A stretch of 64,000 bases of DNA from a virus (Duplodnaviria; Caudoviricetes). Below the pieces are notes generated by a model, which saw only the letters and a list, made by a program, of their open reading frames with translations, had not been told where the DNA came from and made no database searches. This document shows, one piece after another, positions 51,038 through 53,821 of the stretch. Location of the stretch: positions 96,001 to 160,000 of IMG/VR virus record IMGVR_UViG_3300045596_000094. One strand, 5' to 3'. A program made the position numbers and the translations under genes. Within the stretch, counting starts at the first letter, position 1. Every line of letters starts with the position of its first letter.

Positions 51038-51625
51038 ATGGCTTATAAGCACCAAACAAAAGGGCGTAACAAACGCCGTACACAGGCGATCCAAAAAGCC
51101 AAAGGCGGGCATATCTCTCAAGACAAATACCGCTCTCTCTTAAACAAACTCGCTCAAACTGTTTTAACCGTTAAAGGTCAACAGCAAATCCTTACACAAG
51201 CTCCGCCGATTTTCAATGTTCGCCCTATGATCGAACGTGGTGAAATCGACCCAAAACTTCTTGATGCTAAAAAGTTGGTTGAATGTGGAAAACAGATTCT
51301 GCTTGCAGAACCAACTCTCGCCACACGCATTGAAAATCTTCTTAATAGAGCAGCCGACTTTCTAGACCACGCATATAAAGTGAACTTCGGCGGATTGTCT
51401 GAAGTCAATCAACTCAAGACAGTATCTCAGATTCTTGAAATTCAATCTGAATCAGAAGCCTGGGCTATTGATTTCACTTCTCAAATTCATGGACCGCTAT
51501 TGGAAGCAATAGATGTTCTGAATAAGGCTTTACCAGAAGCCAATCGTGTTGACGTAAAAGACATGCTCAACATGGTAAACGCACTAAAATTACTTACGAA
51601 CGAACAAGGTGAAACAAATGTCTAA
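51038..51625 (+). CDS. Conserved hypothetical protein with basic N-terminus (start moved to MAYKH)
   Basis: AAGGT RBS before ATG 51038. Confidence 0.7.
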   Translation: MAYKHQTKGRNKRRTQAIQKAKGGHISQDKYRSLLNKLAQTVLTVKGQQQILTQAPPIFNVRPMIERGEIDPKLLDAKKLVECGKQILLAEPTLATRIENLLNRAADFLDHAYKVNFGGLSEVNQLKTVSQILEIQSESEAWAIDFTSQIHGPLLEAIDVLNKALPEANRVDVKDMLNMVNALKLLTNEQGETNV

Positions 51626-53273
51626 TAACGAACAAGAACTTCCAATGTTAGATGAAGATGGTGTGGAGGTAACACCGCCGGAACCCGAAACGGTACCCCT
51701 CCTGGAGACTGTACCCGGTGATGTTCCACCAGAAAAACCGCAGGAAGATACGAAAGAAGACATTATCGATATTCCTGAAGTGAAACTTCCACGCACTGAG
51801 GCAGAGCCTAACATGCGTGTTAAGAAAGTGTTTGATGTCTATTCGGTTATTGATGAAACTACTAAGAGTAAAGATAAACGCGAACCTTTACTCTTACTGG
51901 CAAAACCATTCAAGTTTTTGCGTGAAGGTGCCGAATCAGAAGCTTGGACACTACTCACTGAAGACATGAGTAAAGATGAAGCTTTGCAGGAGTTCATGGC
52001 ACGCTTCTTCTATGCTGGAACTTTCTCATTAGGTCAATCCGAAATTAAAGATCGTGGATTCTTTGAAGGTTGGTTGGGTGATGAAGAAACACCAAATGAT
52101 TCGATCTTACAACAAATTCGTGACGATAAAAATTCAATTGCGATTGGTGCTCGTCGACCAGATATCGGTAAACAAGGTGGTCGTCGCTTAACAGGTAAAG
52201 CAGCACGTGCTCAAATTGGTTCTGTATTAGGTAACGGTATTACTACGAGCATTCCTTTACCACATACCGGTATCAACATGGAGTTTAGTGCGCGCGGTGA
52301 CGTTGAACTTCTTAACCTTGATTTAAAGATGGCTGAAGAACGTGTTAAAATCGGACATGATACAGCGGGAATGATTTTCCAATGTTCACAGTTTGGTATC
52401 TCAGAGCGTTTATTCAATTTCGCCATGGAATCGGTTACAGATGCGAATCTTCTTGGGTGGGATGATCCATCTATGGAGTTAGCAAAACTGATTCCGATTA
52501 CTGATTTACCAGTGATTTATTGGGGTGTTGCACAGACACTCTATCCTAACGGATACCCATTAGATTTACCATGTGCCTCTGGTCCATTAAACTGTAAACA
52601 TGTTGAACGTGTGAATTTGAATATTCAACGCATCTTCTGGATGAATCGTTCAAAACTTACAACCGATCAACAAAAGCAGTTGTCCGCGGTACGCCATAAA
52701 CACTCTCTAAACGATTTGGAGACGTACGCAAAAGAAGCAGCGAACATTCGTGAACATTCATTCGATGTTATTGTCAATGGCGCTAAGATGACACTGGAAT
52801 TAACAGTGCCAACTATTCACGAGCATATCGAAGCGGGTAAACGTTGGGCATTAGAAGCTGGCCGTGCTGTGGAAGATATCCTTCAAACAGATGATCCAGA
52901 TCCAATGCGTCGACTGGCGTACATGCGTCGAGTTATTGAAATGTCTTCTCTGCGGGAATATGTTTCTTGGGTTAAGAAAATTACCTTTGAAAATGGTAGT
53001 TATGTCGACAACAAAAATGTTGAAGATATCGAATATAACTTAACTCAACTTACACGTGGCGATGATGAAGTTGTTGATCAGATTTTCGCTGAAATTCAGA
53101 AGTTCATTGAGAAATCAACAGTCGCCATTATTGCTATTCCGAACTACGCATGCCCTAAATGTGAAACGGATCAGGCTACGACCGTATCTGAAGAACATCC
53201 AGAGCTTATTCCTTTGGACATCGAAAAACTTTTTTTCGAATTAAAGGACCGCAGACTAGCATCCCGTTTGTAA
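51618..53273 (+). CDS. phiKZ gp77-like protein; candidate tail/baseplate assembly chaperone with two Cys pairs
   Basis: YPNGYP..PC..C, CPKC, C-terminal L.LFF; resembles T4 gp26/gp51-type assembly proteins (inference). Confidence 0.65.
   Translation: MSNNEQELPMLDEDGVEVTPPEPETVPLLETVPGDVPPEKPQEDTKEDIIDIPEVKLPRTEAEPNMRVKKVFDVYSVIDETTKSKDKREPLLLLAKPFKFLREGAESEAWTLLTEDMSKDEALQEFMARFFYAGTFSLGQSEIKDRGFFEGWLGDEETPNDSILQQIRDDKNSIAIGARRPDIGKQGGRRLTGKAARAQIGSVLGNGITTSIPLPHTGINMEFSARGDVELLNLDLKMAEERVKIGHDTAGMIFQCSQFGISERLFNFAMESVTDANLLGWDDPSMELAKLIPITDLPVIYWGVAQTLYPNGYPLDLPCASGPLNCKHVERVNLNIQRIFWMNRSKLTTDQQKQLSAVRHKHSLNDLETYAKEAANIREHSFDVIVNGAKMTLELTVPTIHEHIEAGKRWALEAGRAVEDILQTDDPDPMRRLAYMRRVIEMSSLREYVSWVKKITFENGSYVDNKNVEDIEYNLTQLTRGDDEVVDQIFAEIQKFIEKSTVAIIAIPNYACPKCETDQATTVSEEHPELIPLDIEKLFFELKDRRLASRL
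53231..53237 (+). promoter_or_regulatory. Putative -1 ribosomal frameshift slippery heptamer T-TTT-TTC
   Basis: In-phase X-XXY-YYZ; -1 frame is open from 53192 to 53821. Confidence 0.55.
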
Positions 53274-53305
53274 AAGGTGGGAAGCTTCTAGATAATGACC
53301 CAGAG

Positions 53306-53821
53306 ATGGGCCATGTGACTAGACAGCGTTTTGGTAAGAATACAGATACTCTCAATTTATTATTTGAGTTTGCCGCTAAAGTAGGTAGATGTAATAATGG
53401 TTGGGAGGTCGCTTACTTCATGCAGGCTTTCTACGACAATGTGTATGGTTTATCAGATAAGATGTATCTGGAGAACTATGAGCGCAAAGAAGTGAATAAC
53501 TTCAACCGCCCATTGTCGATGGTCAGTATGAATAGTCGTGAAGGGTTAAGTGAGTTCTCAGGATATCGAAGACGTTTAGTGGAATACATGTCCTTTAAAG
53601 TAAAAGATAATACTGGGATGAGTTTTCTTGAATGGATTAATTTACCAACATTCATTCTAGAGCAACTCCTTGGCGATTTAAGACTACAGTTCCAAGAGCG
53701 TGAAGCAGAAGCGGAGCGTCAAAAACAAGCCATGTTAGATCAAGCTAATATGGGCGGTGCTAAGGATCCGCATACCTTGGCAATGGAACAACTCGCTGGC
53801 GGTTCGAAATACCGAGCTTAA
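53306..53821 (+). CDS. Conserved protein; probable -1 frameshift extension of the upstream gene
   Basis: GMSFLEWINLP motif resembles tail-chaperone T segments; weak RBS at its own ATG. Confidence 0.65.
   Translation: MGHVTRQRFGKNTDTLNLLFEFAAKVGRCNNGWEVAYFMQAFYDNVYGLSDKMYLENYERKEVNNFNRPLSMVSMNSREGLSEFSGYRRRLVEYMSFKVKDNTGMSFLEWINLPTFILEQLLGDLRLQFQEREAEAERQKQAMLDQANMGGAKDPHTLAMEQLAGGSKYRA

Follow-up and report, generated by a model that had tools for sequence, protein, structure and literature searches.

Do two adjoining core genes of the phiKZ-like jumbo phages encode separate proteins, or are they the beginning and the end of a single recoded gene? The question is raised by a locus in a 64,000-nucleotide stretch of Caudoviricetes DNA (hereafter the window; positions 96,001 to 160,000 of IMG/VR virus record IMGVR_UViG_3300045596_000094). 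Here gene A (51618-53273, + strand), which encodes a 551-amino-acid (aa) protein of the phiKZ gp77 family, is followed by a shorter open reading frame, ORF B (53306-53821, + strand). A preliminary description of this DNA had marked the junction as a candidate programmed -1 frameshift, and that candidate is now strongly supported by conservation of the junction, by selection for TTT at the slip site, and by the coding signal of the bridge between the two reading frames. With a probability of roughly three in four, as judged from comparative sequence evidence, we propose that gene A and ORF B are one locus in which a -1 ribosomal slip would give both a 551-aa and a 734-aa protein.

Gene A extends from ATG 51618 to a stop codon at 53271-53273; the ORF lister begins it at GTG 51609, for 554 aa. 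Near its 3' end, the codons CTT TTT TTC (53229-53237; L-F-F) are followed by GAA and contain the slippery heptamer T_TTT_TTC (53231-53237) in the X_XXY_YYZ phase, formed by the third base of Leu538 together with Phe539 and Phe540. The zero-frame tail beyond the heptamer (53238-53273) consists of 11 sense codons (ELKDRRLASRL) and TAA, and it overlaps the -1 reading. The last -1-frame stop before the site is a TGA at 53189-53191, 13 codons upstream of the heptamer; from 53192 the frame is open until the ORF B stop (53819-53821). Read through the slip site, it gives ...FF-RIKGPQTSIPFVKGGKLLDNDPEMGHV..., with a trans-frame bridge, RIKGPQTSIPFVKGGKLLDNDPE (53237-53305), that has no start codon of its own and leads directly into the 171 codons that gene callers count from ATG 53306. 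Those codons are read here as the C-terminus of a fusion, which by arithmetic would comprise 540 gene A residues and 194 residues of the -1 frame, or 734 aa. A scan of the 17 bases upstream of ATG 53306 recovered no Shine-Dalgarno (SD)-like match (score 0). On all of these points, namely the phase of the heptamer, its distance of eleven sense codons from the gene A stop, the open -1 frame, the fusion length and the lack of a convincing ribosome-binding site for ORF B, the preliminary description was accurate.

Within the window, T6Y runs are scarce: 16 occur against 65 +/- 10 expected, and every dinucleotide shuffle contained more. The remaining two Phe-Phe pairs of gene A are encoded by TTC-TTC and TTC-TTT. 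The slip site is, as far as nucleotide sequence can tell, beyond chance both within the window and across the relatives described below. As separate observations, the rarity of T6Y (about fourfold below shuffles) suggests that the window phage generally avoids T/A homopolymers, and a second in-phase heptamer of slippery type, T_TTA_AAG, lies in the middle of gene A (52322-52328).

A split of this kind could in principle be spurious. The record derives from a metagenome, homopolymers are error-prone, and either a sequencing error or a recent frameshift mutation might have divided one gene in the assembly. The T7 run, however, recurs at the same length and in the same frame, free of insertions and deletions, in contigs from three other studies. 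One of these three covering contigs is identical to the window and the others differ by 4 and 11 substitutions over the part that they cover; by arithmetic on these contigs, all eight strain substitutions inside ORF B fall at third codon positions. The zero-frame tail of gene A, moreover, is conserved and modelled as a helix, and 69 of 70 related loci, drawn from both isolates and metagenomes, share the layout. We regard an artefact or a decaying gene as extremely improbable.

That comparative set was analysed by script and consists of 22 junction loci from named phage records and 48 from IMG/VR. The 16-sequence alignment was too divergent to serve as a seed for the IMG/VR scan, which was seeded instead by two sub-alignments. 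With the window included, clustering of the 71 sequences gives 30 groups at 50% identity and 21 at 40%, one of the 30 being a fragment that belongs with the Xoo-sp14 group; after trans-frame peptides more than 90% alike were dropped, 48 representatives were retained. A homologous run of five to eight T on an invariant Phe occurs in 70 of 70 related loci, and in 69 of them 149-194 codons follow it in the -1 frame before a stop is reached. The junction alignment that the preliminary description had suggested as a check therefore bears it out: 69 of 70 loci keep both the T-run at the Phe-Phe codons and the -1 phase of what follows. In 64 of 65 sequences, the window among them, the last 230 nucleotides (nt) of gene A contain exactly one run of at least five T; it sits on the Phe that is invariant in protein alignments (F540), and the next -1-frame stop, that of the ORF B homologue, comes only after 151-194 codons. 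The other frames behave differently. Beyond the run, the zero frame closes after 8-44 codons, and the +1 frame is closed within 20 codons in most loci, although it extends for 140 codons in one. Six further lineages, namely Churi (genus Phikzvirus), SPN3US, Halocynthia phage JM-2012, Aeromonas D3, Vibrio BONAISHI and PhiEaH1, are all alike, with -1 ORFs of 149-171 codons.

The sole exception is Xanthomonas phage RTH11, which has T7 (L005:2309-2315) where its sister LucasX has T8 (L003:3573-3580). As deposited, RTH11 gene A enters an unrelated tail of 67 codons, with the usual gene A tail in the -1 frame and B in the +1 frame; the one-T difference thus places upstream gene A, its tail and B in three different frames. 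It is either a homopolymer error, in which case RTH11 would exemplify the sequencing artefact considered above, or a real length variant of the slippery run. Upstream of the run, we also observed that about 20 of the 48 representatives have a -1 stop exactly six codons upstream of the first trans-frame codon, or about four upstream of the heptamer; it arises where a conserved Asp codon comes after a codon that ends in T. In the window lineage itself, a related strain (run X4) carries T>A at 53189 and has lost the upstream -1 stop.

Conservation of Phe-Phe residues would not by itself require conservation of the bases that encode them, but the bases are conserved. The first Phe codon is TTT in 46 of the 46 representatives that have Phe there (the other two have CTT or GTT), against only 27% TTT among the Phe codons elsewhere in gene A (227 TTT to 606 TTC). 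Seven representatives, mostly G+C-rich and including loci L005, L012, L014 and L044-L046, use no TTT elsewhere in gene A. In 38 of 48, the codon before the first Phe has T in its third position, compared with 24.9% T at gene-wide third positions (nominal binomial p = 4e-15, uncorrected for relatedness), and an A follows the second Phe codon in 42 of 48. The canonical T_TTT_TTN heptamer is present in 38 of the 48 representatives; T_TTT_TTA itself occurs in two, AgentSmith and, as its record reads, RTH11. Selection evidently acts on the nucleotides here, and not solely on the Phe-Phe residues.

The sequence downstream of the run carries a coding signal of its own. We took seven groups of related loci and measured variability as the mean pairwise difference at each codon position of the gene A frame. 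Upstream of the site the values for positions 1, 2 and 3 are 0.22, 0.16 and 0.45; in the overlap they are 0.13, 0.13 and 0.21; in the first 15 codons past the gene A stop, 0.20, 0.42 and 0.25; and in the body of B, 0.19, 0.50 and 0.26. Position 2 of the gene A frame is the third position of the -1 frame. Past the gene A stop, variability is greatest at third positions of the -1 frame, so the bridge is already evolving as coding sequence in that frame; in the overlap, variability is low at all three positions, with synonymous-site variability about halved among relatives, so that segment is doubly constrained. The run, the open -1 frame and their conservation under nucleotide-level selection are, in the sequences compared, properties of the family and not of the window phage alone.

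Alternatively, A and B could be two ordinary genes, with B translated alone, whether initiated at a canonical or atypical codon or coupled to the termination of A, and with the T-run and the -1 phase as mere by-products of a conserved Phe-Phe and tightly packed genes. Annotators have in effect taken this position, since all 21 annotated records examined across the junction give separate coding sequences (CDSs) or leave B largely unannotated, and an ATG does precede the conserved part of B in the window (Met 53306, where gene callers begin), in the D6 group and in a few others. Aligned from the slip onward, the trans-frame peptides comprise a Pro/Gly-rich stretch, a conserved ..D..NGHV....FG motif, and a helical body. 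Between the upstream -1 stop and the FG of this motif, 26 of the 48 representatives have no ATG, GTG or TTG, 38 of 48 have no ATG, and in 43 of 48 no possible start is preceded by a 4-base SD match. Because those 26 lack any start before the conserved motif, B cannot be a free-standing gene in many genomes. The annotated starts themselves do not agree: that of RAY precedes the T-run, that of PhiPA3 falls within the conserved motif, and that of RTH11 is deep in B. Two independent genes, furthermore, would not be expected to keep the -1 phase in all 30 clusters, to use TTT against the codon bias of gene A, or to be joined by a bridge that evolves in the frame of the second. We consider this alternative quite improbable. 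In Churi (L066, locus 2260-2723), as an aside, the 165-codon -1 ORF is mostly unannotated, and only a 46-aa CDS is listed.

Several observations nevertheless weigh against a programmed ribosomal slip. An ATG precedes the conserved motif in 10 of the 48 representatives, the window included, and B might be made alone in those genomes. The canonical heptamer is missing from 10 of 48, eight of which have A/G_TTT_TTT and two only five T. No naturally fused A-B protein was found among proteins longer than 340 aa, which is weak evidence in that long proteins crowd the candidates. Nor do the usual stimulators appear: over the 60 nt downstream, a conserved RNA structure is absent (mean z -0.48, with 3 of 48 below -2), and an upstream SD-like 4-mer occurs in only 5 of 48. 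The weak hairpin that the preliminary description had placed after the slip site (53259-53285) does appear in the predicted fold; with a 60-nt minimum free energy of -11.3 and z = -0.18, it is no better than shuffled sequence, and we have set it aside as a stimulator.

The lack of a conserved ribosomal stimulator also bears on a different origin for the same fusion. If phage or host RNA polymerase added one U within the U-run of a fraction of transcripts, those mRNAs would themselves encode the 734-aa protein, and the predicted product is identical by either route. Most lineages carry a homopolymer of seven or eight T, the one-T difference in RTH11 shows that the run is unstable or hard to sequence, and an RNA polymerase beta gene adjoins the locus. 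Chimalliviridae transcribe with their own RNA polymerases. Bacterial polymerase slippage typically involves runs of about nine, however, and the 10 of 48 representatives with only five or six T are short for such slippage. In addition, the run is extended 5' of the Phe codons (T in 38 of 48) and is then followed by A (42 of 48); this 5'-ward extension argues against polymerase slippage because tandem tRNA re-pairing needs that phase and a polymerase does not. Transcriptional slippage is therefore unlikely in our estimation, although it is the less improbable of the two routes by which B could be expressed without a ribosomal frameshift.

If, as we prefer to read it, gene A and ORF B make up a single recoded locus, most ribosomes would continue to the gene A stop and release the 551-aa protein. 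A fraction would slip by -1 while tRNA-Phe occupies UUU-UUC of U_UUU_UUC (53231-53237), and would then translate the -1 frame through the Pro/Gly-rich linker into B, giving a 734-aa protein that shares its first 540 residues with the shorter form. We infer that it is the ribosome that slips and that the phage requires the two products in a fixed ratio; the efficiency of the slip is probably modest, by likeness to lambda G/GT.

Gene A belongs to phrog_4585, a family of unknown function, and has no Pfam match; NCBIfam is empty for both gene A and ORF B. In the PhiPA3 record, gp074, a member of the same family, is given as the equivalent of phiKZ gp077 and 201phi2-1 gp136. By tblastn, gene A homologues were recovered from 187 phage records, every one below 60% identity, among jumbo phages of Pseudomonas, Erwinia, Serratia, Ralstonia, Vibrio and others; homologue lengths range from 476 to 627 aa. 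Neither a megablast of the locus against phage records nor a single-protein scan of IMG/VR gave a match, so there is no close sequenced relative in either set. The window belongs to a 269,038-base virus record with terminal repeats, and the data set that contains it best is a metagenome of bioreactor sludge. Its adjoining genes are a divergent RNA polymerase beta subunit gene (phrog_2962, E 1e-111), followed by gp79-like and gp78-like genes, and small opposite-strand ORFs also lie beside gene A and ORF B; the same synteny is seen in relatives. Gene A, the polymerase gene and this synteny together would place the window phage in the phiKZ-like family. No terminator-like site was found between gene A and ORF B. 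In Churi, a nearby opposite-strand ORF of 47 aa is labelled "baseplate hub protein".

The AlphaFold2 model of gene A (predicted local distance difference test [pLDDT] 74.7; predicted template modelling score 0.76) places the slip inside the predicted last helix (residues 535-550), the end of which is encoded by the zero-frame tail. Conserved Cys residues are found at 319, 326, 512 and 515. Residues 1-72 (51618-51833), for their part, are acidic, Pro-rich and disordered in the model (pLDDT <50), and this region is highly variable in length among relatives. The ORF B model is helical and confident only at about 110-170. No PDB chain matches the profile of A or B by sequence, a result that fits, without proving, absence of the proteins from solved virions, and fold searches of solved structures with Foldseek and VIA-align returned weak helical matches only (best E 0.33, best Z 5.9). 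Against predicted viral structures (BFVD), Foldseek with gene A first recovers its own family (E 4e-29 to 5e-19), and ORF B recovers its own family only. Among these models, Tenacibaculum phage pT24, Ackermannviridae sp. and Myoviridae sp. ctLnO19 each have a weak A-like and a weak B-like model under neighbouring accessions; if the models are taken at face value, the pairing of A and B, and perhaps its recoding, may extend beyond the phiKZ-like phages.

What might the proteins do? The preliminary description noted a resemblance to the T4 gp26/gp51-type proteins, and this suggestion fared unevenly, drawing weak support from predicted fold and language-model features, no match from the family profile, and low probabilities from profile-profile alignment. 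Among the weaker BFVD rows for gene A are T4-like baseplate hub subunits, hub assembly proteins and hub assembly chaperones of 217-312 aa (E 1.8e-4 to 5e-2; target TM-score 0.41-0.57, with predicted models on both sides). The corresponding family is PF12322 (T4_baseplate) in Pfam and "gp26 family baseplate hub assembly chaperone" by its NCBI name. In the ESM Atlas, 21 of 30 feature hits for gene A fall in a set whose cluster has PF12322 on 16% of its members (score 0.91), and the figure for one structural neighbour cluster is 14%; the DT01, AgentSmith and AH06 homologues carry similar baseplate-hub labels from their annotators. The gene A family and the T4 gp26/gp51 family are also alike in having two pairs of conserved Cys, of which the second forms a CxxC close to the C-terminus.

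Other results count against such a function. PF12322 matches 0 of 16 members of the gene A family, and it finds nothing in PhiPA3, RAY, DT01, Churi or the window genome, whereas the T4 controls gp26 and gp51 score 215 and 178 bits. Alignments of gene A profiles with gp26/gp51 in hhalign gave 15% (27 columns around a CPxC motif), 6%, and 1% (17-sequence profile). According to the Churi paper, the Churi homologue is detected 15 min after infection and listed as non-structural; such early detection sits uneasily with a purely late assembly role. ORF B as a relative of gp51 or gp26 was considered separately and rejected (hhalign probability <1%; a Gp51_C row in the Atlas scored 0.81, which is chance level). 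Gene A is also more than twice as long as its putative counterparts, and T4 uses two genes rather than recoding: a short gp26 (PF12322 over 1-206 of 208) and a long gp51 (1-201 of 249). The T4 record (L065:4803-5429, gene 26) incidentally lists a second product, 26', from an internal in-frame start, by which two proteins arise through a different route. On balance, a relationship of the gene A protein to the T4 baseplate-hub assembly proteins gp26 and gp51 is plausible in fold, and we suggest only tentatively that it is an assembly factor distantly related to them, a functional reading that we think less likely than not. More speculative still is the broader proposal that all phiKZ-like nucleus-forming phages make an unannotated core protein of about 650-800 residues by -1 frameshifting, and that the two gp77 forms are a single-locus counterpart of the T4 paralogue pair gp26/gp51, with recoding rather than duplication setting the ratio of two hub-assembly factors.

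No annotated record among the 21 examined across the junction links gene A to ORF B, and PhiEaH1, the 22nd named record, leaves the locus unannotated. A literature search found no paper describing a programmed frameshift in phiKZ-like phages or Chimalliviridae, in keeping with the preliminary description, which knew of none. Three sources use similar terms for other things: in the accessible text of each, "frameshift" in the Churi paper refers to a selected mutant, "gp77" in the Goslar structure preprint is a different, capsid protein, and gp76 and gp77 in a transposon-sequencing preprint follow PCH45 numbering. The phiKZ-like phages are heavily studied for their phage nucleus, their use in therapy and their virion structure, and their core genome has been catalogued gene by gene. 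If the frameshift is real, core "gene" B would be the tail of a hidden longer protein and not a gene, every genome record of the family would be mis-annotated at this junction, and the conserved-frameshift principle of tail assembly chaperones would extend to a different and much larger protein family. If the link to T4 gp26/gp51 also holds, the locus would offer a handle on the assembly of a very large baseplate hub.

Finally, the locus can be compared with established recoding systems. HIV-1 gag-pol sites of the U_UUU_UUA type and Escherichia coli dnaX depend on a downstream stem-loop or an upstream SD. The jumbo-phage site resembles the gag-pol type in being a U-rich X_XXY_YYZ heptamer decoded by tRNA-Phe, and it differs from both in that neither a downstream structure nor an upstream SD is conserved. 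The tail assembly chaperone genes of lambda (gpG/gpGT), P2 (E/E+E'), Mu and others share a conserved -1 frameshift, and no strong stimulatory RNA structure is known for the lambda G/GT slip. The preliminary description interpreted gene A and ORF B as a tail chaperone pair of this G/GT type, an analogy that is partly supported. Its functional half is the weaker one: neither A nor B matches a tail-assembly-chaperone family in Pfam or PHROG (B has no family at all), an RNA polymerase beta subunit gene adjoins the locus and no tube or tape-measure gene does, and the early, non-structural listing of the Churi homologue is a further point against it. At 476-627 aa, gene A is about four times the length of gpG (roughly 140 aa), and its heptamer is U_UUU_UUY rather than the G_GGA_AAG of lambda. 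P2 GpE was also tried as a relative of ORF B and rejected, with an Atlas score of 0.82, at chance level. It is the recoding layout that the systems have in common. As in lambda G/GT and P2 E/E+E', the putative slip lies a few codons before the upstream stop and would produce a short form and a C-terminally extended form with a common N-terminus, and, as is typical of the lambda type, the parts have been annotated as two genes. Comparison across the relatives points to this same arrangement, in which slippage close to the 3' end of the first ORF would yield a shorter and a longer protein.

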